Positions 401 through 62,719 of a DNA stretch of 64,000 bases are shown here, one piece after another. This DNA is from Eledone cirrhosa (taxonomy: Eukaryota). The position numbers were made by a program, and so were the translations under genes. Numbering within the stretch: position 1 is the first letter of the stretch; each line of letters starts with the position of its first letter. The notes below the pieces were generated by a model that was given only the letters and a program-made list of their open reading frames with translations, did no database searches and was not told the DNA's origin. Where the stretch lies: positions 7,750,001 through 7,814,000 of the forward strand of contig OZ024756.1 of the NCBI GenBank assembly GCA_964016885.1, read 5' to 3'.

Positions 401-3400
401 GATTTATTTAATTGTTATAAAATGGCAAAATACAATCCCTCCATTGGCTATATGAACAGAATGAAGCTACACTGGGACGAAATGCACCCAGAGCTAAATT
501 ATTTCACAGCGAAACAATTACGCCAACAAGCGACGTTATTGAACGTAAAAATAAGATAAATAGTATTAATTGTAAGTCCCCCACAACAAACATGTTATCA
601 ACAACACGTGCTACAGGTCGCCATGCTACTAGACTTCCTAGCAGCCTGGTCGAACAGCGCCTTGAAACAACTATGCCTGTAAGAAACTTGACACCACCTG
701 TACCATCTAAGTCTACCTCAAATGCTGGGGAAAACACTATCGATAATAATAATAATCGATGAAATTTGACACCACGTGTACCATCCGAGTCTACCTCGAC
801 TGTTGTAGAAAATGCTATCGATAATGATAATAAAGAAAAGTATAAACAATTGAAAATTTCCCTCAATAAAATCTTCCAGAGAGAAATTAATTCATGTATA
901 AAATCTCTCTTGCTGAACGTGTTAAAACGACAATGTTTAATAACAAACCAAATGATGAAATATTACGTGTTATTGACGAAATAGGGGATGAATATTTACG
1001 ACGGATAAAAACCCCAACATTTTGGCAAATCAACGCCTGTTTATATGCCTTAGCAACGACAGTGAAGCATTATCTTGGTGATAACAGAGATATTAACAAA
1101 AACAAAACCCCACAAAAAATACCATCATATATAACTAAAATAGAAAAAAAGATTGCTGACCTACGAAAAACCATAGGATATGCGACAATGCTTCTTACAT
1201 GCAAACAAACACAAATAAATCTCACTTCTCACCAACAAAGAGTGAACAATAAAATAGAGACGATGTTTGGTAATAGTAGAACCAGAACTCTTCAATATAA
1301 GCTGATCACCCTCTAACAAGAATTGGGAGCTGCTAGCGAAAAACGCCGATACCTAAAGAAAGTAGATGAAAGAAAAGTTCTTAATAAAAGATTCAGACGA
1401 AACCAAACATCAGTCTATAGAGATATGAAGAACAAAATAATAAGTGTCACTGAGGCCCCATCCCAGAAAGACATAGATTCCTTTTGGAGCAAAATATGGG
1501 GTGAAAAGAGGAATTCAACCGAAAGAACTATTGCTCCTACACTAAAACAAAAACATACGAAATAAGTGAGGGTACCCTTGAGACTGTGATAGGAAAGCTC
1601 CAAGATAAGAAAACACCACGAAGAGGCACGATTGTCGGCTACTGGTACAAAAAAGTGATATTCTATCGGAGGTATCTTGCTAACCTCTACCAACACGTTC
1701 TTAAGGGAGATACACTTATACCAGAATGGTTGACATTAGCACAAACATTACTGGTCCCCAAGAACAAAGACACCCAATTGGCAAAAAACTACCGACCCAT
1801 TGCATGCCAGAACCTGATGTATAAGATGTATACAGCCTGCCTGAACCTATTCCTCCAAGATCACTGTGAAAATAATAACATCATCACAGATGACAAGCAG
1901 CTGGAAAGAAGGGGGTTTGGGGATGTACTGAACAACTCCTAATCAACAAAACTGCAATGTCGGAGGTGCGACAACTTATGAGGAATATGGCTACAGTCTG
2001 GCTGGACTACATGAAAGCTTTCGATTCTATTCCCCACTCTTGGATCATAGAGGCCCTTCAACTTGCTAAAGTCCCAGACATTATTGTCAGAGCCATAAAG
2101 AAGCTGTCTTCTTCTTGGGCTACTATCCTAAGGTTAAAGATAGAGAAGAATGACTCTATTTTCACTGATAATATAAAATATCGCAGGGGTATATTTCAGG
2201 TAGACAGTCTCTCTGTGATATTATTCATCTTGTCATTAAACCCCTTGTCCTTTCTGCTCAAGAAATGTGAGGGATACATCATTGGCTCACAGGAGGACAG
2301 AAATACGAACCTAACCCATAATTTCTTTGTGGACGATTTGAAACTCTATGCCAAGAACATGGATGGGATGAAGAAAAATCTTGACCTGGTTACAACGTTC
2401 TCAAAGGATATAGGAATGGAGTTTGGCCAAGATAAATGCTCATACATGACTGTAAAGCGGGGAAAAACAACAACCCAATCTAGTAACATTGTCATCAATG
2501 GCCTAACTGTTTCACCGATATCTGATGAGGACTGCTACAGATACCTGGGGATAGATGAGAACATATCCTATAATGGTATCTGTAATAAGGAACGCGTAAC
2601 CAGGGAATACTACACCCGATTAAGAAAGATTTGGTCATCGGAACTCTCTGCGCAAAACAAAACAGTGGCTCACAATGTGTTTGCTGTGCCTGTCCTAATA
2701 CCAACGTTTAGAATACTTAATTGGACGATAGACGAAATCCAAGCAGTTGATGTTGGAACTCGAAAAATACTGAACAACACCGGAAACTTCCACATCAACA
2801 GTGACATAGACCGCCTTTACTTGAAACGTAAGCAGGGAGGCAGAGGCCTAACATCAGTCCAGACAGAATTTGAATGTCGCATCATATCCCTCCGACAACA
2901 TCTACGAACCTCGAAGCGTAGGAGCCCGCTTCTCGAGCAAGTCTATCTGCATGAAACAGATAAGATCATGAGAGTTGAGAAGGAACTCCTTGAGAGATAT
3001 TCCCTGTGTGATAATCAAAAACTCATACCCAGGGAAGTCGCTCAGCAGTATCGCAGTGAATCCATAGATGAAAAACTGCATGCTTATCAGCAAAATATCA
3101 TGCATGGATATGTTGCCAGGAAGCTGCAGAGTGAGAGTAATATAAATAAGGAAAGTAGTCTATCTTGGACCAACAACCGCTATATTGGCTCCCACTTTGA
3201 AGGATACGCTTTTGTAATCCAAGAACAGGAGATTAGCACGAAATACCTGATTCACAAAAGAGATAGGGATGTAGGCAAAACACCCAGATGTGATAACAAG
3301 TGCAGATTCTGCCGAACTAACGTCGAGGATATCACCCATGTCATCAGCAGCTGTCCAAAGATGTCATTGCGGTACTATCTACCTATGAGGCATGATGTAG

Positions 3401-4110
3401 TGGCCAAAACACTGTACAATGCAGTCCGTAAAAAAGATAGCCCCGATAATAAACACATTAAAAGCTACAGCAATGTGGAAGACATCCATGTACATAATAT
3501 AAAAGAGTACTGGTGGAATGTTTCAGTAAAAACACCAATAAAATGCAGGCATTATGATATGGGACAGGGAGAAGAAAGCATGCACAGTAGTGGATATTAG
3601 CTGCCCAGCAGATGCCAATATAATATCAAAGATTAGCGAAAAGGAGAATATTTATGCAGAACTGATGAGAAATCTGCAGATACTCCACCCTGATTATACT
3701 TTCAGATTTATGCCTGTGATTATGGGCACTGGGGTATGTTAGTAACTGCCTCAATACAAATCTTGAGAAGCTAGGCTTCACAGGAACAGAAAGAACACAA
3801 CTAGAAGGGAAATTACAAGTACAATCAATTAATGGAACAGTAAAAATATGTAAAACATTCCAAAAATTGTGCATCTAATAACTGCATATACACATGTACT
3901 GATACAAAGCATATACACATGCACACATACAACTCAAAACATCCACATCCACACATACAATATCATCCATATCTACACATGCATGCATGCATGCATAATC
4001 TACCTAGTTGTTGTGTAAATTCCAATGAGAGTCTTGTGTCTATGTTATAAACCGACTCTCTCTCTATTGGTAAAACATTTGTGAAATTATAAAACCAGAA
4101 CACACACACC
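401..4110 (+). mobile_element. R4/Dong-like RLE non-LTR retrotransposon, near full length, frameshifted
   Basis: N-terminal GYMNRMKLHW..TAKQLRQQA, RT motifs NYRPIAC, WLDYMKAFDSIPH, RGIFQVDSLS, FVDDLKLY, YRYLG, GGRGL; zinc knuckle CRFC..EDITHVISSC, RHD and RLE VVDISCP..K...Y. Split across ORFs 894-1316, 1323-1565, 1586-1942, 1957-3600 and 3554-3742. Confidence 0.9.
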
Positions 4111-12521: not shown

Positions 12522-12606
<85 letters not shown>

Positions 12607-12660
12607 TTTCTGCTGCTTAAACCATTTTGTTTGTTTACCCTAGCGTCCCCTTTATTTACG

Positions 12661-12764
12661 TGTCCCAACGACTTTTTTTTACCCGTTGCTCGCACTAACC
12701 TGAGGTATATGGCCTTTAATGCGACGAAATGCTTACGACGGTTGGATGGCCACTGATGAGGACA
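12661..12764 (+). ncRNA. Permuted (type II-like) hammerhead variant, copy 1
   Basis: tgtcc-hairpin-hairpin-c-GAAA-tgct-TA-17 nt-CTGATGA-ggaca; homologous to 55208-55309. Confidence 0.5.
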
Positions 12765-13099
12765 AACTTTTTCATATGTAACCCATTTGCAGCGCCGCAG
12801 CTCCATTATTATCATATATATATATATATATATAATAGACCTATTCCATTCTTTCTTGTTTATCGCTTTCTCTTTAATCCTTCTTCCATTCTTCTGTAAA
12901 CAGGGAATCCGTTCATCATATTTCACTGCAACAGGTACCAATTGCAGGTTCTATAACCTCCTCGAAACAATGCCGACAATACACAACTAAGTAAAATAGA
13001 AGATTAATATTTCCGTATCACCAATGTTGGGATTGTTTCTCATGATTCAATATACATAAGGATGTATCGTAACATATGTATAGGAATTTACGTATATAC

Positions 13100-17330: not shown

Positions 17331-17726
17331 ATACTTGGGAAGGGTCATATTGTTGTAATAATATTGCCAGAAATAATAACGGAACACACTCACTGTCTGG
17401 ATGGTTTTCGCATCTGTATCTTTTATATCTCGATAGTTAATTCATTTGGCGATCAATGTTTATCATTGACTGACCAACGGTCAAAAATACAGATATAAAT
17501 ACATATATATAGTCTACGAAAAAAGTTCTTTCGTTGCACATCTGTAACATCATCAGAAAAATGGCGTAGACATACAATACAACAAGAGGCAACATAATAG
17601 TACCACTGATGATGTTGCAGATGTGCAACGAAAGAACTTTTGTTAGATTATATATATGTATTTATATCTGTATTTTTGACCGTTGGTCAGTCAATGATAA
17701 ACATTGAGGGCCAAATGAATCAACTA
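17327..17726. mobile_element. Head-to-head pLTR pair with HHRs at 17512-17571 (minus) and 17606-17650 (plus)
   Basis: CTGATGA-t-gttgca/tgcaac-GAAA-gaac-TT; same family as 7455-7910. Confidence 0.8.
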
Positions 17727-20030: not shown

Positions 20031-20301
20031 TGCCAATCGAAGAAGAAGGAACTAGAAGGGAAATGACCAGTTATTGGCCAGTGTTGTCAGATTGATTTCT
20101 GTGTAATTGTAACTGTCATATAGTTGTGGAAGTAATGGTGGTGCGGTCAGTGATAGATGTTTATTATAGACAGCAGCATGACAGTGATAAGGGTGTAGAA
20201 ATAGCGGATATACTGGTAATTAGGGCCTCGATAGACCGCTAGAAATAGATATTATTGATGTGATATAGGAAATATCTTATCATTAAGTCAGGGCAGTCAA
20301 G

Positions 20302-23300
20302 AGGATGGTGGTAAGGATGGTGGTAAGATGGTGGTAAGGATGGTGGTAAGCATGGTGGTAAGATGGTGGTAAGGATGGTGGTAAGCATGGTGGTAAGATG
20401 GTGGTAAGGATGGTGGTAAGGATGGTGGTAAGATGGTGGGAAGGATGGTGGTAAGGATGGTGGTAAGGATGGTGGTAAGATGGTGGGAAGGATGGTGGTA
20501 AGATGGTGGTAAGATGGTGGTAAGGATGGTGGTAAGCATGGTGGTAAGGATGGTGGTAAGCATGGTGGTAAGGATGGTGGTAAGGATGGTGGTAAGATGG
20601 TGGGAAGGATGGTGGTAAGGATGGTGGTAAGCATGGTGGTAAGCATGGTGGTAAGGATGGTGGTAAGGATGGTGGTAAGGATGGTGGTAGGGATGGTGGT
20701 AAGGATGGTGGTAAGGATCGTGGGCAGGATGGTGGTAAGATGGTGGTAAGATGGTGGTAAGGATGGTGGTAAGGATGGTGGTAAGCATGTGGTAAGCATG
20801 GTGGTAAGGATGGTGGTAAGCATGGTGGTAAGGGTGGTGGTAAGGATGGTGGTAAGCATGGTGGTAAGGATGGTGGTAAGATGGTGGTAAGATGGTGGTA
20901 GGATGGTGGGAAGATGGTGGGAAGGATGGTGGTAAGATGGTGGGAAGGATTGTGGTAAGATGGTGGTAAGGATGGTGGTAAGATGGTGGTAAGATGGTGG
21001 TAAGGATGGTGGTAAGATGGTGGTAAGGATGGTGGTAAGGATGGTGGTAAGATGGTGGTAAGATGGTGGTAAGATGGTGGTAAGATGGTGGTAAGGATGG
21101 TGGTAAGATGGTGGTAAGGATGGTGGTAAGGATGGTGGTAGGATGGTGGTAAGGATGGTGGTAAGGATGGTGGTAAGGATCGTGGGCAGGATGGTGGTAA
21201 GATGGTGGTAAGATGGTGGTAAGATGGTGGTAAGGATGGTGGTAAGGATGGTGGTAAGCATGTGGTAAGCATGGTGGTAAGGATGGTGGTAAGCATGGTG
21301 GTAAGGGTGGTGGTAAGGATGGTGGTAAGCATGGTGGTAAGGATGGTGGTAAGATGGTGGGAAGGATGGTGGTAAGTATGGTGGTAAGATGGTGGGAAGG
21401 ATGGTGGTAAGGATGGTGGTAAGGATGGTGGTAGGATGGTGGTAAGGATGGTGGTAAGGATGGTGGTAAGGATGGTGGTAAGCATGGTGGTAAGGATGGT
21501 GGTAAGGATGGTGGTAAGGATGGTGGTAAGGATGGTGGTAGGATGGTGGTAAGGATGGTGGTAAGGATGGTGGTAAGATGGTGGAAAGATGGTGGGCAGG
21601 ATGGTGGTAAGGATGGTGGTAGGATGGTGGTAAGATAGTGGTAAGATTGTGGTAAGGATGGTGGTAAGATGGTGGGAAGGATGGTGGGAAGGATGGTGGT
21701 AAGGATGGTTGTAAGATAGTGGTAAGATTGTGGTAAGGATGGTGGTAAGATGGTGGGAAGGATGGTGGTAAGGATGGTGGTAAGGATGGTGGTAAGGATG
21801 GTGGTAAGGATGGTGGGAAGGATGGTGGTAGATGGTGGTAAGATGGTGGTAAGGATGGTGGTAAGGATGGTGGGCAGGATGGTGGTAAGGATGGTGGTAA
21901 GATGGTGGAAAGATGGTGGGCAGGATGGTGGTAAGGATGGTGGTAGGATGGTGGTAAGGATGGTGGTACGGATGGTGGGCAGGATGGTGGTAAGGATGGT
22001 GGTAAGGATGGTGGGAAGGATGGTGGTGAGGATAGTGGTAAGATGGTGGTAAGATGGTGGTAAGATGGTGGTAGGATTGTGGTAAGATGGTGGAAGGATG
22101 GTGGGAAGGATGGTGGTAAGGATGGTGGTGAGGATAGTGGTAAGATGGTGGGAAGATGGTGGGAAGGATGGTGGTAAGGATGGTGGTAAGATGGTGGGAA
22201 GGATTGTGGTAAGATGGTGGTAAGGATGGTGGTAAGGATGGTGGTAAGATGGTGGTAAGATGGTGGTAAGATGGTGGTAAGATGGTGGGAAGGATGGTGG
22301 TAAGGATGGTGGTAAGATGGTGGGAAGGATTGTGGTAAGATGGTGGTAAGGATGGTGGTAAGGATGGTGGTAAGATGGTGGTAAGATGGTGGTAAGATGG
22401 TGGGAAGGATGGTGGTAGGGATGTTGGTAAGATGGTGGTAAGATGGTGGTAAGATGGTGGTAAGATGGTGGTAAGATGGTGGTAAGATGGTGGGAAGGAT
22501 GGTGGTAAGATGGTGGTAAGATGGTGGGAAGGATGGTGGTAAGGATGGTGGTAAGATGGTGGGAAGGATTGTGGTAAGATGGTGGTAAGGATGGTGGTAA
22601 GGATGGTGGTAAGATGGTGGTAAGATGGTGGTAAGATGGTGGGAAGGATGGTGGTAGGGATGTTGGTAAGATGGTGGTAAGATGGTGGTAAGATGGTGGT
22701 AAGATGGTGGTAAGATGGTGGTAAGATGGTGGGAAGGATGGTGGTAAGATGGTGGTAAGATGGTGGGAAGGATGGTGGTACGGATGGTGGGCAGGATGGT
22801 GGTAAGGATGGTGGTAAGGATGGTGGGAAGGATGGTGGTGAGGATAGTGGTAAGATGGTGGTAAGATGGTGGTAAGATGGTGGTAGGATTGTGGTAAGAT
22901 GGTGGGAAGGATGGTGGGAAGGATGGTGGTAAGGATGGTGGTGAGGATAGTGGTAAGATGGTGGGAAGATGGTGGGAAGGATGGTGGTAAGGATGGTGGT
23001 AAGATGGTGGGAAGGATTGTGGTAAGATGGTGGTAAGGATGGTGGTAAGGATGGTGGTAAGATGGTGGTAAGATGGTGGTAAGATGGTGGTAAGATGGTG
23101 GGAAGGATGGTGGTAAGGATGGTGGTAAGATGGTGGGAAGGATTGTGGTAAGATGGTGGTAAGGATGGTGGTAAGGATGGTGGTAAGATGGTGGTAAGAT
23201 GGTGGTAAGATGGTGGTAAGATGGTGGGAAGGATGGTGGTAAGGATGGTGGTAAGATGGTGGGAAGGATTGTGGTAAGATGGTGGTAAGGATGGTGGTAA

Positions 23301-25135
23301 GGATGGTGGTAAGATGGTGGTAAGATGGTGGTAAGATGGTGGGAAGGATGGTGGTAGGGATGTTGGTAAGATGGTGGTAAGATGGTGGTAAGATGGTGGT
23401 AAGATGGTGGTAAGATGGTGGTAAGATGGTGGGAAGGATGGTGGTAAGATGGTGGTAAGATGGTGGGAAGGATGGTGGTAAGGATGCTGGTAGGATGGTG
23501 GTAAGGATAGTGGTAAGGATGGTTGGAAGGATGGTGGTAAGATGGTGGGAAGGATTGTGGTAAGATGGTGGAAAGATGGTGGGCAGGATGGTGGTAAGGA
23601 TGGTGGTAGGATGGTGGTAGGATGGTGGTAAGGATGGTGGTAAGGATGGTTGGAAGGATGGTGGTAGGATGGTGGTAAGATGGTGGTAAGATGGTGGTAA
23701 GGATGGTGGTAAGATGGTGGGAAGATGGTGGTAAGATGGTGGTAAGATGGTGGTAAGATGGTGGTAGGATGGTGGTAAGATGGTGGGAAGGATGGTGGGA
23801 ATGATGGTGGTAAGGATGGTGGTGAGGATAGTGGTAAGATGGTGGGAAGGGTGGTAGTAAGATGGTGGGAAGGATGGTGGGAAGGATGGTGGTAAGATGG
23901 TGGGAAGGATGGTGGGAAGGATGGTGGGAAGGATGGTGGTAAGATGGTGGTAAGATGGTGGTAAGATGGTGGGAAGGATGGTAGTAAGATGGTGGGAAGG
24001 ACGGTGGTAAGGATGGTGGTAAGGATGGTGGTAAGATGGCGGTAAGATGGTGGTAAGGATGGTGGTAGGATGGTGGTAATGATGGTGGTAAGGATGGTGG
24101 TAAGATGGTGGTAAGATGGTGGTAAGATGGTGGGAAGGATGGTAGTAAGATGGTGGTAAGAACGGTGGTATTAATGGTGGTAATGATGGTGGTAAGGATG
24201 GTGGTAGGATGGTGGTAAGGATGGTGGTAATGATGGTGGTATGATGGTGGTAAGGATGGTGGTAAGGATGGTGGGCAGGATGGTGGTAAGGATGGTGGGA
24301 AGGATGGTGGGAAGGATGGTGGTAAGGATGGTGGTAAGATGGTGGCAAGATGGTGGTAAGGATGGTGGTAAGATGGTGGTAAGATGGTGGTAAGATGGTG
24401 GTAAGATGGTGGGAAGGATGGTAGTAAGATGGTGGTAAGAACGGTGGTAATAATGGTGGTAATGATGGTGGTAAGGATGGTGGTAGGATGGTGGTAAGGA
24501 TGGTGGTAATGATGGTGGTATGATGGTGGTAAGGATGGTGGTAAGGATGGTGGGCAGGATGGTGGTAAGGATGGTGGGAAGGATGGTGGGAAGGATGGTG
24601 GTAAGGATGGTGGTAAGATGGTGGCAAGATGGTGGTAAGGATGGTGGTAAGATGGTGGTAAGATGGTGGTAAGATGGTGGGAAGGATGGTGGTAAGAACG
24701 GTGGTAAGAATGGTGGTAAGAATGGTGGTAATGATGGTGGTAAGGACGGTGGCAAGGATGGTGGCAAGGATGGTGGTAAGGATGGTGGTAAGATGGTGGT
24801 AAGATGGTGGTAAGATGGTGGGAAGGATGGTGGTAAGGATGGTGGTAAGCATGGTGGTAAGGATGGTGGTAAGGATGGTTGTAAGGATGGTAATAAGGAT
24901 GGTGGTAAGGATGGTGATAAGGATGGTGGTAAGGATGGTGGTAAGGATGGTGATAAGGATGGTGGTAAGGATGGTGGTAAGGATGGTGGTAAGGATGGTG
25001 GTAAGGATGGTGGTAAGGATGGTGGTAAGGATGGTGATAAGGATGGTGGTAAGGATGGTGATAAGGATGGTGGTAAGGATGGTGGTACGGATGGTGGTAA
25101 GGATGGTGGTAAGGATGGTGGTACGGATGTTGGTA
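20302..25135. repeat. 4.8-kb (GGATGGTGGTAA)/(GATGGTGGTAA) minisatellite
   Basis: 11-12-nt units with recurrent variants and higher-order blocks. Confidence 0.95.
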
Positions 25136-25868
25136 TAAGTTGGGAGCAAATGGAAGGATTTACACGGACTAAATAAGCCTGTATTGCATGACAGAAATAT
25201 ATTCCGGGTTGAGATATTTATGGAAGTACAAATTAGCAACATGGAAGGTAGGAGTCAATGCTGGGATGTGAGGTGATAAGAAGGTGATAAACATAAGGAG
25301 AGAAGAGATTGAGAATTGTAACAGAAATACATAATATGCCAGTGTATATGTATATACATATGTATATATAGATGTATATATATACACGCACACACATATA
25401 TATATATATATTTATATATGGTGGCTGCCAACTCGTTTTCGAGTACGGCCACTACCATATATCCATGTAGGAGAACTCCTACCGATGAGCTGAACGAGTG
25501 TGACTTTTTAGTTCAGCCAGCGACTTGAAAACTCCGGTACAAACACTACACTTGTGACAATTATTGACACATAGTGCTGGGCCCATGGTACCATGTGACG
25601 ACAAGTGCAGAGAGATCTCCAGATATAAAGAAATGCCTGTGCCCTGAAGCTTTTATAGTGATCAAAGGCACAGCACAAAGCCAGTCCCACTCTCTTAACC
25701 AAGATCATATTTACCAAAAAGAAGAACAAGTGAACAAGGGCAAGGGAGCTCTTAAGTGTCAATGGCCATCCAAAATCACCGGGAAAGATGACCCCTTAGC
25801 CTTTGTCAAGGCAGAATTCTAGGAGAAGGAAAACTCTGATATAACACCTGCAACCCTGATGGTATCCA

Positions 25869-33668: not shown

Positions 33669-33673
<5 letters not shown>

Positions 33674-36600
33674 ATACTTTGGGAGGGTCATGTTGCCAAT
33701 AAGAAACACACGCACCAGTTGCTTTCACTTCAATTTAATTTATTATATATTTATAAATTTACAAATTTATAAATTTCTGGTTGGTTGGTTGGTTCCACAA
33801 CCAGATAGTTGTTTATATATATATAGTCATAGTTCTTTCGTCACACACTCTGTGACCTCTTCAGTGACTGGGGATTTCTTTCTTCGTTTCTGTGCCTTTC
33901 CTTTCTTCTATCCTACGCCATTTTGTTTGTGTGTGGGTTGCGTGCTCAGTTTGCGCATGCGCCACATCCGGGTGTCTGTGTGTGTTTGTGTTCATTTTTC
34001 TATTTTTCTATTTGTTTGTTTATTTATTTATTTATTGTTGGTTGGTTGTTTGTTCTATGTGTGTGTGTGTTTTCATTTTGTCTTGTGTGTGTTTTCATTT
34101 TGTGTGTGTTTTCAATTGTAAGTTGTTTGTTCTATGTGTGTGTGTGTTTTCATTTTGTCCTTAATTGTAAGTTGTGATGTTGCTGTTCCACTCATATTTT
34201 CTATTTAATTTTGGTTTTAATTCTTTTATGCTTACTGCCTCTGTAATTTGCCTAAACATTGCGTCTTTCTTGTGTGTGGATTCTATTTTTATTTCTATGC
34301 TCTCTAATTTACCCCTGTGTTCTATCTTAGCATGTTGGTAGAGCACAGATGATTCTTTATTATCTTGGAGGTCTCGCCAGTGTTCATTTATTCTTTCCCC
34401 TATACTACGAGCTGTCTCACCTATGTACACTATATTTTTGTTTCTACATTGTCCTTCAGTACATCTTATTCTATATACTACATTTCTAGTTTTACAGTTA
34501 ATATGGGGGCTTATTTTACAGGTTATACATTTCTTATCTATACATGAGGGTCTTTGGAACGGGTATGTCTTGCTAATAAGTGTTTTTACGGAGGTACCAG
34601 GTCTTTCTACTATCTTAATATTGAGATTATGTTTCTTTAGGGCCCTTCTAAATTTGTAGGCTAGTTCGCCTCTAGGGGTTGTATTGATGAACATTACACT
34701 CTGGTATTTATTGCTATCATACCATGAGTTTATTCTATTGGCCTTGTTCTTAGTTCTTTCTATTCTATTCCAAAATTTGCTCCTATACAAGGGGCAGGTC
34801 CCATTTATGTCATTATTTACCATTTTTTCCCATTTGGTTCTGGCTCCTTTATACACTCTGATTCTATCTCTCTGATTGTAGCCAGAGAACTGCATACGGT
34901 GGATGAAGTGTTGTATGTGTCTCTCTAGTTCTTCGGGGTTGCACATGCGGGACACATTTCTCATCACCCGTACCAAATCCGCAATCAGTATGTTGATTTT
35001 GGTATGGTCCGAAATGGCCGAGTTTCGGTGGATCAGATGTTTGGAAGTCATGGGTTTGGCATAATGGGAATGGAGGATTTGTTTTTGGTTGTTAATTGTA
35101 TCTAACCAGAGCTCTGTGTCTAGTACAGGTAATCGATGGTTGGGGTGTCTACTTGGGTAGTCTATAGTAACTCTAATGCTCTGGTGGATGGAGTTTGCTA
35201 TTTGCTGGATGCTTTCCATTGTGTTTTTCTCTAGTTCCTGACTGTTCTTTAGTGGGGGTGTCTTAACTACGATGTTTATATCATCTACGTAGCGGGAGTA
35301 CATTATCAGGGTTAAGCTGTCTCCTAATTGTTCATTAAGTTTTTGTTTAAGTCTACTGTCCCACCATACCATGAATAAGTTAGCTATGTCGCCTGCAATG
35401 CTAACACCAATGGCTGCTCCTTCCTCTTGGGCATATGTTTTACCATTAAATTTGAACATATGTTCCTTAAGGGTTAATTTTATGCTGGCCCCTACCGCAT
35501 GTGCAATAATTTTCTTCAGTTCATCGTGGTTTTCGGGTGTCCGTATGGCTCTGGTCCACCCGTTCCATCTATCTGTATGGGTTTTCTTGGCCATTGAGGT
35601 AATGGTAGGTGGTCTGCCTCTTGCTGGTCTTGTAGGGCACAGGTTGCTAAGGTCATAAGTGTCTAGGTAACTATTACTATGGGTAAGCTTAAGTAGAAGT
35701 CCCAGCTCACTGGTATCAATCCCACGGAACTCAACCTTGCTCTCGCTGATCATTTCGACGCATTTCTCCACAGCAAAATCCACGTCAATAGATGGATACA
35801 GGGACACAACATCCATACTGCCTATTATGCAGTTTGTTAGGTCCCCAGATCGGTTACCCGCGCCGATTCTGCTGAGGAGGTCCTCCGTGCTGTCACACAC
35901 ATCTGGGGACATCTCAATGATGGGGCGTATGATCAGGGAGAGGAAGTAGGACAGTCTGTAGTTACTAGCAATGTTAGCCCCACAGACTGGCCGTGTTGGT
36001 GGTCCCGCGACGGGGTCCCAGCCCGTTTTATGGTCTTTTCGAAGCCCATACAACGCCGGCACGTCATTGTTCCAGGCCTGGAAGTTGTTGGCAGTCCTTT
36101 TGTTGGGCTGCATTATATTTGTCCACATCACCATATGGGCATTGAGGGTTTTTCTCTATCCTCATGCTCCTGTGGTGTTACCTCTCTTGTGTTAGTGATG
36201 TGGGGTTGCATTGCCTGGATGTAGTTTGGCAGGCTGTCAACCGACATTCTGCCAGACTTGTCTGTTGGAAAGCATGCTATCTCTCCATTACGCGAGCGCT
36301 GCATGAGCTTACGCAAGCCATTTGCAGATTCTTCTCCCAGTTGCTGGGCCTCTATTCTATTATGCTTCTTGCTATACTGTTCTATAATATTTCTAAGTTC
36401 GGATTTAGCTATACTAAATTGTGCTTCTGTTTGTTCATCGACCTGCGACGGCAACTGCGTGCGTTTGTTAAATGGCAAAGTCGTGGCGTGGACTCGTCGT
36501 AGGTCGAATGATTTATCGGAGGGGTTATAGAACGGAGAGTTCCAGGCTGCTGCTTTGTGTGTACTAGTGCTATTGTTATTGTTAGTTGTGTTGTTTCTAT

Positions 36601-38148
36601 TTCCACCAACAGCAGCAGCCTCAGCTTCATGGTTGTTTCTATGTCTCTCATAATTACTCCTGTCTCTTACCACTGGCTCAATGTTGTTATCTACCCTATT
36701 TTGTGTGTCTGTGTGTTCGTCTTGGTTATTCTCTTTGTCCTTAGTCTCCCATCTCCTTTTCCTTTTAATCCTATTACTTTCTCTTATTTCTCTGATTTCT
36801 GTGCTACTGTCATTACTTGTTTTCTGTGTCTGTGTGTTTGTTAAGATTGTGGTGGTGGTGAGAGGCATTGAATGCGTGTGTGTTGTTGTTGTTGATGTGT
36901 GTTGTTGTTGATGTGTGTTGTTGTTGTCTCCGTGTGTGTGTGTGTTATCGTTGTTGTGTGTGTTGTTATTGTTGTTTGTGTTTGCGTGTCTGTTGTTGTT
37001 GTATCTGGGTATGTTGCTATTGTTGTTGTTGTTGATGTGTGTGTTGTTGTTATTGTTGTCTCCGTGTGTGTTGTTATTGTTGTTTGTGTCTGCGTGTCTG
37101 TTGTATCTGGGTATGTTGCTATTGTTGTTGTTGTATCTGGGTATGTTGCTATTGTTGTTGTTATTGTTGTGTGTGTCTGTGTGTCTGTTGTTGTTGGGAT
37201 GTGTGTTGTATATGTGTGTGCGTATATTGTTGCTTTTGTTTTTGTTTTTGATGCTCCAGCGTAGTTTCGTAAATGATTTTTCTATTTCTGACAGACAACT
37301 AATCATATTTACCTTCTTGAATGTCGCAAATTTGGGTGGCAGACGTAACACAGACATTTCATTATTATCTATTTCCGTGTTTCCATAAATGTTGGTATTT
37401 TCATTGTTGAACTCTTCAGATAATGAGGTGTCGGCCATGTTGATACCGTCAATTTTGTCGGGATATCTATTGGTATACTCTATAGTATCCCGATTTAGCT
37501 TTGCCTGTTTAAGCCACTTTAATTTTCTGTTAAAGTGCTTATTACATTCTTGAGTAATGTACTGTTCTTCGGGGCGTATAAGGCTTATAAATGTTAGTTT
37601 TTCTGTTGGTGTGGTGATTTTAGATATTTCTTGTATTAGGTTACGCTTTAGTTTTTCTTGATGACTTAATTCTCTATAGATCTTCTTTTTTATGTTTAGA
37701 ATTAAAGTTCGTTTTAGCCTATCTGCTTGTTTTTTGGTGAGTTGTAATCTTCTAACGTCGGTATTGATGGTGTTGGTGTAGATTCTAGAAGTGGTGCACA
37801 GTTTTATGAAGCGTAGTTGTCGAGATGTTATGGTTTTTCGTAGACAACAGAACATGGTGGTTTTCAGTATGTTGTTAGCCTGGCTAAGGCTTACGATATT
37901 TCGTTTCTGAATTTGTTTAGCAAGATTCTTTATCTGAAATCGTGTGTTGAAACCGATATTGTTATACTTTGGGAGGGTCATGTTGCCAATAAGAAACACA
38001 CGCACCAGTTGCTTTCACTTCAATTTAATTTATTATATATTTATAAATTTACAAATTTATAAATTTCTGGTTGGTTGGTTCCACAACCAGATAGTTGTTT
38101 ATATATATAGTCATAGTTCTTTCGTCACACACTCTGTGACCTCTTCAG
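33669..38148 (-). mobile_element. Full-length Penelope-like element with 5' partial pLTR and 3' pLTR
   Basis: Direct pLTR repeats 33669-33864 and 37959-38148 flank a single RT-EN ORF; HHR at 33825-33869. Confidence 0.95.
34161..37981 (-). CDS. PLE polyprotein (N-terminal, Asn-rich linker, DKG-like motif, RT, GIY-YIG), ~1273 aa once a 1-nt homopolymer frameshift at 36149-36153 is restored
   Basis: PTDKSG, LYGLRKDHK, TRPV, SMDVVSLYPSI, QEEGAAIG, SRYVDD, VLD, NVVY..C..C..YIGET..ERINEH..H...H, ITEA..LN. The run is 5 T here versus 6 A at 38293-38298 in the sister arm. Confidence 0.9.
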
Positions 38149-38181
38149 AAGGTAGGTTGACAGCCTGGCAGACAAGTCTGG

Positions 38182-40822
38182 CAGACAAGTCTGGCAGAAT
38201 GTCGGTTGACAGCCTGCCAAACTACATCCAGGCAATGCAACCCCACATCACTAACACAAGAGAGGTAACACCACAGGAGCATGAGGATAGAGAAAAAACC
38301 CTCAATGCCCATATGGTGATGTGGACAAATATAATGCAGCCCAACAAAAGGACTGCCAACAACTTCCAGGCCTGGAACAATGACGTGCCGGCGTTGTATG
38401 GGCTTCGAAAAGACCATAAAACGGGCTGGGACCCCGTCGCGGGACCACCAACACGGCCAGTCTGTGGGGCTAACATTGCTAGTAACTACAGACTGTCCTA
38501 CTTCCTCTCCCTGATCATACGCCCCATCATTGAGATGTCCCCAGATGTGTGTGACAGCACGGAGGACCTCCTCAGCAGAATCGGCGCGGGTAACCGATCT
38601 GGGGACCTAACAAACTGCATAATAGGCAGTATGGATGTTGTGTCCCTGTATCCATCTATTGACGTGGATTTTGCTGTGGAGAAATGCGTCGAAATGATCA
38701 GCGAGAGCAAGGTTGAGTTCCGTGGGATTGATACCAGTGAGCTGGGACTTCTACTTAAGCTTACCCATAGTAATAGTTACCTAGACACTTATGACCTTAG
38801 CAACCTGTGCCCTACAAGACCAGCAAGAGGCAGACCACCTACCATTACCTCAATGGCCAAGAAAACCCACACAGATAGATGGAACGGGTGGACCAGAGCC
38901 ATACGGACACCCGAAAACCACGATGAACTGAAGAAAATTATTGCACATGCGGTAGGGGCCAGCATAAAATTAACCCTTAAGGAACATATGTTCAAATTTA
39001 ATGGTAAAACATATGCCCAAGAGGAAGGAGCAGCCATTGGTGTTAGCATTGCAGGCGACATAGCTAACTTATTCATGGTATGGTGGGACAGTAGACTTAA
39101 ACAAAAACTTAATGAACAATTAGAAGACAGCTTAACCCTGATAATGTACTCCCGCTACGTAGATGATATAAACATCGTAGTTAAGACACCCCCACTAAAG
39201 AACAGTCAGGAACTAGAGAAAAACACAATGGAAAGCATCCAGCAAATAGCAAACTCCATCCACCAGAGCATTAGAGTTACTATAGACTACCCAAGTAGAC
39301 ACCCCAACCATCGATTACCTGTACTAGACACAGAGCTCTGGTTAGATACAATTAACAACCAAAAACAAATCCTCCATTCCCATTATGCCAAACCCATGAC
39401 TTCCAAACATCTGATCCACCGAAACTCGGCCATTTCGGACCATACCAAAATCAACATACTGATTGCGGATTTGGTACGGGTGATGAGAAATGTGTCCCGC
39501 ATGTGCAACCCCGAAGAACTAGAGAGACACATACAACACTTCATCCACCGTATGCAGTTCTCTGGCTACAATCAGAGAGATAGAATCAGAGTGTATAAAG
39601 GAGCCAGAACCAAATGGGAAAAAATGGTAAATAATGACATAAATGGGACCTGCCCCTTGTATAGGAGCAAATTTTGGAATAGAATAGAAAGAACTAAGAA
39701 CAAGGCCAATAGAATAAACTCATGGTATGATAGCAATAAATACCAGAGTGTAATGTTCATCAATACAACCCCTAGAGGCGAACTAGCCTACAAATTTAGA
39801 AGGGCCCTAAAGAAACATAATCTCAATATTAAGATAGTAGAAAGACCTGGTACCTCCGTAAAAACACTTATTAGCAAGACATACCCGTTCCAAAGACCCT
39901 CATGTATAGATAAGAAATGTATAACCTGTAAAATAAGCCCCCATATTAACTGTAAAACTAGAAATGTAGTATATAGAATAAGATGTACTGAAGGACAATG
40001 TAGAAACAAAAATATAGTGTACATAGGTGAGACAGCTCGTAGTATAGGGGAAAGAATAAATGAACACTGGCGAGACCTCCAAGATAATAAAGAATCATCT
40101 GTGCTCTACCAACATGCTAAGATAGAACACAGGGGTAAATTAGAGAGCATAGAAATAAAAATAGAATCCACACACAAGAAAGACGCAATGTTTAGGCAAA
40201 TTACAGAGGCAGTAAGCATAAAAGAATTAAAACCAAAATTAAATAGAAAATATGAGTGGAACAGCAACATCACAACTTACAATTAAGGACAAAATGAAAA
40301 CACACACACACATAGAACAAACAACTTACAATTGAAAACACACACAAAATGAAAACACACACAAGACAAAATGAAAACACACACACACATAGAACAAACA
40401 ACCAACCAACAATAAATAAATAAATAAACAAACAAATAGAAAAATAGAAAAATGAACACAAACACACACAGACACCCGGATGTGGCGCATGCGCAAACTG
40501 AGCACGCAACCCACACACAAACAAAATGGCGTAGGATAGAAGAAAGGAAAGGCACAGAAACGAAGAAAGAAATCCCCAGTCACTGAAGAGGTCACAGAGT
40601 GTGTGACGAAAGAACTATGACTATATATATATAAACAACTATCTGGTTGTGGAACCAACCAACCAACCAGAAATTTATAAATATATAATAAATTAAATTG
40701 AAGTGAAAGCAACTGGTGCGTGTGTTTCTTATTGGCAACATGACCCTCCCAAAGTATAACAATATCGGTTTCAACACACGATTTCAGATAAAGAATCTTG
40801 CTAAACAAATTCAGAAACGAAA
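38182..40822 (+). mobile_element. Inverted 5'-truncated arm of the same PLE with intact RT + GIY-YIG (stop 40286) and 3' pLTR
   Basis: Reverse complement of 33669-36264 plus a ~60-nt longer 3' end. Confidence 0.95.
40578..40622 (+). ncRNA. Minimal type I hammerhead ribozyme of the PLE pLTR
   Basis: agtca-CTGAAGA-g-gtcaca/tgtgac-GAAA-gaac-TA-tgact; 5-bp stem I and 6-bp stem II. Confidence 0.85.
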
Positions 40823-54255: not shown

Positions 54256-54567
54256 TAAGCACTTACTGATGAATGATGGTTCCTGGTCTAGATGATACTT
54301 GTTACTGGGAACGATAATTGGTGATTGGACCCAATCATTGGATATTATAGGCATCATATTCTGGAATTATCATGAAACCGCCGTATATGTTAGCTTTAGG
54401 CAATTTTGACTTAATTCTTTCTATGAGTGAGTACATTACGTGGGTAAAAATTCTGAAGACACGAATGCAAGGACAATATCCGGTCATCGGCTGTCTTCTG
54501 TGGAGCGTCATAGTTTTGAATGCATTAAAGACGGACTGTTCACCACTGTGCATTATATATATTTGTA

Positions 54568-54735
54568 TAATTGTTTCTACTTTTTGGCACAAGGCCAGCA
54601 ATTACCCAGTACATTACTGGTACTTTATTTTATCGACCCCGTAAGGATGAAAGGCAAAGTCAACCTCAGCGGGATTTGAACTCAGATCGTTAAGGGACGT
54701 AACTATGCTGGAAAGCATGGCATCCGACCCTCTAC
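54568..54735 (-). mobile_element. tRNA-derived SINE
   Basis: Same family as 49359-50425. Confidence 0.85.
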
Positions 54736-54747
54736 TATATATTTGTA

Positions 54748-55365
54748 TAATGCAATGAAATATCTATGATCGTCGGCAAATCACTGATGAGGCACTTATT
54801 TTATTACATGTTATCCATGTGCAACCAGCAGTATTCTTCTCCCCATTTTTTCACATATATTTACCTAAACTGCGATTCTGTTTTTTTCTCTCTCTCTCTC
54901 TTACTGCTCCCTCGCTCTCTCTGTTTCTCCTACTTTCTTTCGCCCCCTCTGTCATGTCAGTTAACTCTTCCTCACACTTCCACTCATTCACTCACTGTTT
55001 CTCCTCTTCTCACTTCACCCCGTTCGCGACGAAATCATTTTCTCTCTTTCTCACATTTGAATTCGCTCCTGAAAGGTCTTTGTTCTAAGCGCTCATATAT
55101 TCACCTAGCTTATGCTAACAGAATAACTATGAAGCTTGTTCTCTTCCTTCTACGGTTAGCTATCCTCTTTGTTGTTATCTTGTTTCACTCGCTTTACGCG
55201 TTTTAATTGTCCTAATAACTTAATTTAGTTATTATTGCACCGACGTGATGTATATGATTTTTAATGCAATGAAATATCTATGATCGTCGGCAAATCACTG
55301 ATGAGGGACTTATTTGATTACATGTTATCCATGTGCAACCAGCAGTATTCTTCTCCCCATTTTTT

Positions 55366-55372
<7 letters not shown>
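54748..55372 (+). mobile_element. Non-coding 514-bp-period partial tandem element carrying the permuted hammerhead (55208-55309)
   Basis: Direct repeats 54748-54860 and 55262-55372; ends in (TA)n. Confidence 0.7.
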
Positions 55373-55399
<27 letters not shown>

Positions 55400-60795: not shown

Positions 60796-62719
60796 CAGGC
60801 TGTATCAAAAGGAATCATCCGATTGTATTTACAATTTTTACAAATACTCCATTTGTAAATAACTTTATAAAAATTTATAAAAGTTATAAAAAAAGAATCA
60901 AACTTTATATTCAGACATGTATTGTACAAGTTACCACATGGTTATATGTTAAGACATGCATTGTACATGTTACCACATGGTTATATGTTAGGACATGTAT
61001 TGTAGAAGTTACCACATGGTTATATGTTAAGACATGTATTGTACATGTTACCACATGGTTATATGTTAGGACATGTATTGTACATGTTACCACATGGTTA
61101 TATGTTAGGAGATGTAGTGTACATGTTACCACATGGTTATATGTTAGGACATGTATTGTACAAGTTACCACATGGTTATATGTTAAGACATGTATTGTAC
61201 ATGTTACCACATGGTTATATGTTAGGACATGTATTGTACATGTTACCACGCGGTTATATGTTAAGACATGTATTGTACATGTTACCACATGGTTATATGT
61301 TAGGACATGTATTGTACAAGTTACCACATGGTTATATGTTAAGACATATATTGTACATGTTACCACATAGTTATATGTTAGGACATGTAGTGTACATGTT
61401 ACCACATGGTTATATGTTAGGATATGTAGTGTACATGTTACCACATGGTTATATGTTAGGACATGTATTGTACATGTTACCACATGGTTATATGTTAGGA
61501 CATGTATTGTACAAGTTACCACATGGTTATATGTTAAGACATATATTGTACATGTTACCACATGGTTATATGTTAGGACATGTAGTGTACACGTTACCAC
61601 ATGGTTATATGTTGGGATATGTAGTGTACATGTTACCATATGGTTATATGTTAGGACATGTAGTGTACATGTTACCACATGATTATATGTTAAGACATGT
61701 ATTGTACATGTTACCACATGGTTATATGTTAAGACATGTATTGTACATGTTACCACATGGTTATATGTTAGGACATGTATTGTACAAGTTACCACATGGT
61801 TGTATGTTAAGACATATATTGTACATGTTACCACATGGTTATATGTTAGGACATGTAGTGTACATGTTACCACACGGTTATATGTTAGGACATGTATTGT
61901 ACAAGTTACCACATGGTTATATGTTAAGACATGTATTGTACATGTTACCACATGGTTATATGTTAGGACATGTATTGTACATGTTACCACGTGGTTATAT
62001 GTTAAGACATGTATTGTACATGTTACCACATGGTTATATGTTAGGACATGTATTGTACAAGTTACCACATGGTTATATGTTAAGACATATATTGTACATG
62101 TTACCACATGGTTATATGTTAGGACATGTAGTGTACATGTTACCACATGGTTATATGTTAGGACATGTAGTGTACATGTTACCACATGATTATATGTTAA
62201 GACATGTATTGTACATGTTACCACATGGTTATATGTTAAGACATGTATTGTACATGTTACCACATGGTTATATGTTAGGACATGTATTGTACAAGTTACC
62301 ACATAGTTGTATGTTAAGACATATATTGTACATGTTACCACATGGTTATATGTTAGGACATGTATTGTACAAGTTACCACATGGTTATATGTTAAGACAT
62401 ATATTGTACATGTTACCACATGGTTATATGTTAGGACATGTAGTGTACATGTTACAACATGGTTATATGTTAGGACATGTATTGTAGATGTTACCACATG
62501 GTTATATGTTAAGACATGTATTGTACATGTTACCACATGGTTATATATTAGGACATGTATTGTACATGTTACCACATCGATATATGTTAGGACATGTATT
62601 GTACAAGTTACCACATGGTTATATGTTAAGACATGTATTGTACATGTTACCACATGGTTATATGGTGATTTGTTTAAAAAATGTAGACTTTTGAAATATA
62701 GCATTTTTAATACATCCTA
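60796..62719. mobile_element. Tc1/mariner-type MITE inflated by a 39-bp satellite (about 45 units, 60912-62664)
   Basis: TA|CAGGCTGTATCAAAA...TTTTAATACATCCTA|TA; the flanks match 15595-15754 in reverse orientation. Confidence 0.75.

Follow-up and report, generated by a model that had tools for sequence, protein, structure and literature searches.

Hammerhead ribozymes are classed by which of their three loops is open, and those reported from animal repeats are mostly of type I. A 64,000-nucleotide stretch of contig OZ024756.1 of Eledone cirrhosa (hereafter the window), consisting of AT-rich and microsatellite-rich animal DNA, raises the question of whether a hammerhead can also be opened at the core itself. 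Two repeats in it had originally been predicted to carry both hammerhead core boxes in permuted order, with a branched junction in place of stem II. Judged from its sequence, the repeat motif is real, structured and present in multiple species, and it most likely works as a hammerhead. We further consider it somewhat probable that it forms a permuted hammerhead with three loop-closed stems, which would cut the RNA of a 514-nt element into units for Penelope-like copying into (TA)n.

Both copies contain GAAA-N4-TA-N17-CTGATGA-GG, at positions 12726-12761 (copy 1) and 55271-55306 (copy 2). The permuted order of the core boxes and their identical spacing were thus found as predicted, together with TGTCC, hairpin A and hairpin B lying 5' of GAAA in both copies and a (TA)n tract at the end of each. 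The two copies are homologous (68% identity over 101 nt, BLASTN E 2.5e-4), and the excess conservation of the core boxes on which the prediction depended was observed: in a 71-nt ungapped block reaching from hairpin B through the G after CTGATGA, 13/13 core bases are identical between the two copies compared with 36/58 of the remaining block (Fisher p 0.0045), a contrast that is partly circular because the cores had drawn attention to the copies. BLASTN identified a third, partial copy at 54748-54860 that was absent from the original list. CUGANGA, GAAA, the A15.1-U16.1 pair and an NUH site are present in all three copies, in the order GAAA, cut site, CUGAUGA and with loops I and III closed. 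A strict version of the permuted pattern has three matches in the window and none in 200 dinucleotide shuffles, and a loose version also has three (shuffles: mean 0.19, maximum 3); two of the three matches in the window are the two terminal repeats of one element. With a covariance model built from two copies, only the three copies already known were found; the following match had an E value of 0.51. Copy 1 is likely a decayed family member. A candidate for a decayed inverted copy at 54380-54570 was rejected, as its score of 47 was equalled by about 20 of 946 window tiles. The positions of all features are collected in Table 1.

Table 1. Positions in the window of the motif copies, the predicted RNA parts (numbered on copy 2), the surrounding element and the Penelope-like elements
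Feature	Position	Strand	Basis or remark
Copy 1, a divergent member truncated at its 5' end and flanked by two (TA)n tracts	12604-12813	+	motif at 12661-12764
Copy 1 pseudoknot	12695-12700/12740-12745	+	6/6 pairs
Copy 1 predicted cut	after 12735	+	sequence
Closing helix P, 5' strand GTCC	55209-55212	+	predicted partner 55306-55309; formed in MFE fold; invariant
Side hairpin A, 8 bp and 6-nt loop	55213-55234	+	3 two-sided changes relative to copy 1
Hairpin B as stem II, 5 bp and 25-nt loop	55235-55269	+	1 two-sided change
Loop II-loop I pseudoknot, 5' strand	55240-55245	+	6/6 pairs in both copies
Position 11.1, one unpaired base (C/T) between hairpin B and GAAA	55270	+	sequence
Core box GAAA (55271-55274), 1-bp stem III with 4-nt loop, U16.1-A17	55271-55280	+	sequence
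A15.1-U16.1 pair	55274/55279	+	core identical in both copies
Predicted cut	after 55280	+	sequence
Stem I, 4 bp and 9-nt loop I	55281-55297	+	4/4 pairs in copy 2
Pseudoknot 3' strand in loop I	55285-55290	+	pairs with 55240-55245
Core box CTGATGA (55298-55304), G55305, P 3' strand	55298-55309	+	sequence
G55305, position 10.1 or extra base 9a	55305	+	register alternatives
Non-coding 627-bp element: one 514-nt unit and 113-bp direct terminal repeat, (TA)n end	54748-55374	+	
5' terminal repeat, truncated	54748-54860	+	GAAA 54757, predicted cut after 54766, CTGATGA 54784
Presumed SINE-like repeat (54572-54735) between identical 16-bp stretches 54556-54571 and 54736-54751	54556-54751	+	
Inverted pair of autonomous Penelope-like elements	33670-40821		ORF with RT and GIY-YIG
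Penelope-like ORF, RT and GIY-YIG matches	34161-36155	-	domain search
Type I hammerheads of the Penelope-like pair	40583; 33864; 30480; 38148	+; -; -; -	scan

The layout proposed for the RNA was upheld in its permuted order and its branching by sequence, inter-copy covariation and family variants, but the replacement of stem II by a junction was not borne out. The strand following CTGATGA can form at most one pair (G with C/U) with the strand preceding GAAA, and the latter pairs with an upstream strand to form hairpin B. Hairpin B, which has a loop of its own, is thus read as stem II, and the branch as the place where the chain enters and exits. Nor does hairpin B directly abut GAAA, as had been described, since one unpaired C or T intervenes at position 11.1. 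Two registers can be drawn for position 10.1. In the first, the G after CTGATGA occupies 10.1 and pairs with 11.1, as G-U or G-C. In the second, 10.1 is the purine on the 5' side of hairpin B, paired A-U in copy 2 and, with a bulge, G-C in copy 1; the G after CTGATGA would then be an extra base as in Penelope hammerheads. Three closed loops and a chain exit at the 9/10 step are predicted in either register. As stem II, hairpin B would stack under the core; the chain ends would leave at the A9/10.1 step, and the GTCC/GGAC helix together with hairpin A would hold them in a four-way branch. Pairing of this helix, originally given as TGTCC with GGAC, is predicted in both copies; it is, however, invariant and without covariation, and its register is shifted by one base between the copies.

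A pseudoknot that the original prediction had overlooked, and that was proposed before the family variants were collected, joins the first six bases of loop B to the first six of loop I with six pairs in both copies. Three of these pairs are unchanged, one is a wobble and two are changed on both sides, one of them by a double transversion (G-C to C-G). When the columns of the two loops were shuffled 20,000 times, a shared helix of at least 6 bp with at least two two-sided changes arose in 0.2% of cases. The pseudoknot would dock stems I and II, thereby offsetting the 1-bp stem III, and would supply the activating contact between loop I and loop II; both copies and family variants preserve this predicted 6-bp helix. 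In the 8-bp register of hairpin A, three pairs are changed on both sides and two of eight are broken, both in copy 1. Hairpin B has one two-sided change among its five pairs, and stem I has one as well, with two of its four pairs broken, both in copy 1, in agreement with its description as tgat/atca in copy 2 and degenerate in copy 1 (4/4 versus 2/4 pairs). The statement that the sequence changes while pairing is kept thus holds for hairpin A (6/8 pairs), hairpin B and the pseudoknot, but not for P, which is invariant, or for stem I of copy 1, which is half broken.

The 16 pairs counted carry four two-sided changes and two breaks; at least four such changes with at most two breaks were reached by 0.3% of 100,000 random placements, in which the same 22 observed substitutions were re-used. 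In the model pairing, drawn from the same two copies that were used for covariation, 32 of 34 cells are paired (94%) compared with at most 50% for slid registers, and the shuffle of the covariation program, which had two rows only, gave a weaker result of 29/500. Folding energies lend the model little support: shuffled sequences fold about as well as either copy (z between -0.24 and -1.40). The nested model has energies of -6.8 and -1.0 kcal/mol, and the pseudoknot duplexes have -8.6 and -5.4 kcal/mol. In the MFE fold of copy 2, the pseudoknot helix is preferred over hairpin B, and copy 1 adopts a different fold.

Parts of the element are present in 9 of 13 listed runs, carrying six species labels; none of these runs is labelled as RNA, which has no bearing on whether the element is expressed. 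Contigs of four of these runs (four species labels) were aligned to 54861-55374 and gave 1,445 matching contigs in run X1, 32 in X5, five in X7 and two in X8. The summed depth of X1, which is no copy number, is highest over the ribozyme end; the many variant contigs suggest many copies. Among the 40 variants listed of 54, seven fall inside 55208-55309. Three of them lie in loops (A55223T, T55249G, T55277C), and the other four make up two complete pairs, G55242A/C55288T in the pseudoknot and T55236C/A55268G in hairpin B. Seven listed variants without an orphan change have a chance probability of 7e-4, computed ignoring the other 14 of the 54 and shared ancestry. G55242A accounts for 59% and C55288T for 45% of X1 depth, and the pseudoknot pair also occurs in X5, where all four paired variants share a depth of 8.29. 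Six of the seven variants have this depth in X5; as it adds up two records, they probably belong to one subfamily and are dependent events. T55249G is near 100% in all four runs, and T55277C is found at 16% of X1 depth, its partner being absent among the 40 variants listed of 54.

All six listed variants that have an ungapped homologue carry the base of copy 1. No listed variant falls in the 13 core bases, which is expected by chance 24% of the time, and P is without variation across the copies and the listed family variants. One X5 contig has an extra base after 55288, within the 3' strand of the pseudoknot, and in six X1 contigs the bottom pair of hairpin A is mismatched. Both compensated family pairs lie in CpG contexts, and CpG decay alone could produce two compensations. 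As a separate observation on loop B, copy 1 and the majority of the family have the same 11-nt stretch (TGAGGTATATG, at 55246-55256 and 12701-12711), and a weak inner stem within this loop is seen in copy 1 only.

In the 627-bp element, copy 2 forms the 3' terminal repeat. The element holds 1.2 units in the window with one hammerhead per unit, has a GC content of 39%, and contains predicted cuts 514 nt apart. Its terminal repeats (54748-54860 and 55262-55374) are identical at 111/113 positions; the differences are at 54793 and 54802, and the change at 54793 in the 5' repeat falls in the P strand. The 5' repeat keeps stem I and loop I and is without the P 5' strand, hairpin A and the 5' half of hairpin B. 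Outside the element, a repeat that we take to be SINE-like is inserted at its 5' edge. This insertion is flanked by a 9-bp inverted repeat (54549-54557 and 54746-54754), which may be a fold-back of the 5' edge from before the insertion, as in Penelope 5' inversions, or chance.

The junction from 55374 to 54861 was found in contigs of X1 (three) and X5 (one), i.e. in two of four runs, and its recurrence in both makes the partial tandem a trait of the family. As insertions reach 94 and 78 nt beyond the predicted cut before they end, reverse transcription did not start at the cleaved 3' end. By analogy with the model in the accessible text of PMC4209133, this would fit a circular or multimeric template that was read for more than one unit. 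Cleavage after A55280 and after its repeat counterpart 54766 would release a 514-nt RNA, which would circularise; reverse transcription would then begin at a TA-matching site about 80-95 nt beyond the cut and go round the circle more than once, leaving a partial tandem.

Penelope-like elements are a candidate helper class. The Penelope-like ORF in the window has an Octopus vulgaris protein as its best named relative (69% identity), and elements of this kind have been reported to form partial tandems, to be truncated at the 5' end and to target microsatellites (10.1101/2021.04.23.441226, as far as its accessible part goes). A BLASTN comparison within the window gave no link of the 514-nt element to a particular helper, the best match to the window's elements being 13 bp (E 0.46). 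In the window, 19 type I-like candidates were listed by a scan for CTGANGA with GAAA-N4-TH after it, and the type I hammerheads there use the same GAAA-N4-TA layout as the permuted motif.

Going by the available portions of PMC7229834 and bioRxiv 10.64898/2026.07.22.740005, the element resembles animal non-LTR retrozymes in being non-coding, low in GC and arranged head-to-tail, in having one hammerhead per unit and in having Penelope-like elements beside it, and its 514-nt unit lies within their range of 51-972 bp. In the same sources, type I hammerheads define non-LTR retrozymes and type I descriptors underlie the published pipelines, whereas the local order in the element is permuted; circular RNA was shown there for animal retrozymes and is a prediction for the element here. 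Penelope minimal hammerheads, in the accessible text of PMC4209133, share with the motif a 1-bp stem III with a 4-nt loop, a stem I of 4-5 bp and the location in terminal repeats, and tolerate an extra base between 9 and 10.1, where the chain of the motif is predicted to exit. They are of type I, with a loop 1 that is ill defined and a loop 3 that is palindromic, whereas the motif has the permuted order, a 6-bp loop-loop helix and a half-palindromic loop III.

Type II hammerheads (GSC order), as the accessible part of PMC3088659 describes them, share with the motif the order GAAA, cut site, CUGAUGA and a loop I engaged in a Watson-Crick pseudoknot. Their stem II, however, is open-ended and without a loop, and their pseudoknot partner is the 3' tail, whereas stem II of the motif has a 25-nt loop 5' of GAAA, the covarying partner lies 5', in loop B, and the chain ends exit via an extra helix and a hairpin. 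The open stem II with 3'-tail pseudoknot was described from bacteria and archaea (PMC3088659, PMC6155905, both in their available text); type II is common in bacteria and present in archaea, and most eukaryotic repeat hammerheads are of type I (PMC3088659, same text). Since two type II features and one feature of non-LTR retrozymes differ, the element is not counted as a member of either group.

Two further systems come into consideration, each according to what is openly available of the papers cited. The PK hammerhead (Zhan et al. 2024; PMC11300833) also has an extra stem-loop and a 6-bp pseudoknot helix, but its pseudoknot replaces helix II, whereas helix II of the motif is a separate hairpin and the pseudoknot is distal (PMC11300833, PMC12192606). 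The SGC, CSG and GCS permutations (Eckert et al. 2023; PMC10085705) are natural rewirings in which stems I and II are joined by an extra helix. They are non-circular, whereas the motif has the circular GSC order, its oddity being the break next to CUGAUGA, and the accessible text of that paper knows of no insertion longer than 1-2 nt between CUGAnGA and its stems.

It is possible, if less than probable, that the motif is a fourth circular permutation of the hammerhead, with all three loops closed, the backbone opened between A9 and stem II, a four-way-branch clamp and monomer cleavage by way of the 6-bp helix in spite of the 1-bp stem III, in a high-copy retrozyme family that spans several octopus species and is invisible to type I descriptors. 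If true, opening at the core 9/10 step would be an exit point that published permutation schemes assume to be closed, and type I descriptors would miss whole retrozyme families in animals. It would also bear on Perreault's suggestion, in the accessible part of PMC3088659, that repeat propagation may require type I architecture. Furthermore, such a core, its free ends at stem II and its loops intact, would make a useful engineering scaffold.

Instead of the monomer, the active form might be a domain-swapped dimer of the terminal repeats, with a type I or III core formed across the 514-nt unit and the branched fold as a storage state. The single base pair of stem III would suit such a dimer, as would the self-complementary central two bases of loop III in both copies (AT, GC), which give a swapped stem III with 4/6 pairs, and the truncated 5' repeat, which keeps exactly GAAA, cut site and CTGATGA. 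With a stem III of 1 bp, animal hammerheads show poor cleavage as monomers, and dimer dependence is documented for Penelope-type minimal motifs, both in the accessible text of PMC4209133 and PMC7229834. We nevertheless regard the dimer as unlikely: loop III is not fully palindromic, T55277C is common in X1, and a dimer, too, would require P, both hairpins and the pseudoknot, which all fall within 102 nt, so the architecture would still be out of the ordinary.

It has also to be weighed whether the structure is real and selected but non-cleaving, an RNA signal for a helper reverse transcriptase with inherited core boxes. Such a signal would be in keeping with insertions that end 78-94 nt downstream of the predicted cut and not at it, with the conservation of non-core blocks such as the 11-nt stretch of loop B, and with the spread of Naiad elements without hammerheads (10.1101/2021.04.23.441226, in its accessible part). 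It seems quite improbable in view of 13/13 identical core bases between copies that are 68% alike, and of a loop I-loop II contact that is the hammerhead-activating one in the available text of PMC3088659. An ordinary decayed repeat, with rearranged Penelope hammerhead boxes and covariation produced by CpG decay and post-hoc helix choice, is very hard to maintain. The folding z-scores are indeed non-significant, only two full sequences were aligned, two compensations are of CpG type and the structure was drawn from the same two copies; but a double transversion accounts for one of the pseudoknot changes, four more two-sided changes come from hairpin A and stem I, and the family variants fit a helix proposed beforehand.

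For the permuted hammerhead, it had been expected that standard models would miss the motif. The Rfam hammerhead search indeed gave no match to copy 1 or copy 2, but it equally missed the ordinary type I hammerhead at 40583 that served as a control. A targeted Rfam scan gave no match for copy 1 and three weak snoRNA matches for copy 2 (E 2.5-7.2); identity as a C/D-box snoRNA was rejected as a chance overlap with TGATGA. In the whole window, the 150 listed of 331 Rfam matches were all microsatellite-driven and below gathering scores. Permuted-pattern loci in collections numbered 36 viral, 6 metagenome and 21 prokaryote; from these 63 loci, 47 matches fitted the filter pattern and 0/47 passed the structure filter, which both window copies pass. 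The literature covered, mostly open-access main texts including PMC7936874, PMC6765202 and PMC11662667, contains no report of such an architecture, nor of an octopus family of such hammerheads.

Several other repeats of the window carry type I hammerheads. In those at 40583+, 33864-, 30480-, 38148-, 17606+ and 17556-, loop III (GAAC) is non-palindromic and CTGANGA is followed by an extra base. Stem II of the hammerhead at 17606 (GTTGCA/TGCAAC) resembles hairpin B, and downstream of hammerheads of this type a hairpin like stem I and loop I of the motif is found (17677-17693+, 17467-17483-, 7656-7672-). The latter resemblance is probably due to chance, because the pattern was post hoc, the model gave an E value of 0.51 and the site has an alternative hairpin of its own. 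Between 41191 and 45087, a 1.4-kb repeat occurs as nested copies in direct and inverted orientation, four of which have a type I-like hammerhead (42330+, 44783+, 44017-, 41553-) with a long loop II and a palindromic loop III (CATG). Finally, the window contains a broken non-LTR reverse transcriptase ORF at 1894-3600 (RVT_1, E 3.5e-15), a 5-kb GGT-rich low-complexity array with a G-skew near 1 at 20239-25254, and a long tandem array at 60906-62664, with a unit of ~39 bp and its longest matches offset by multiples of 78 bp.
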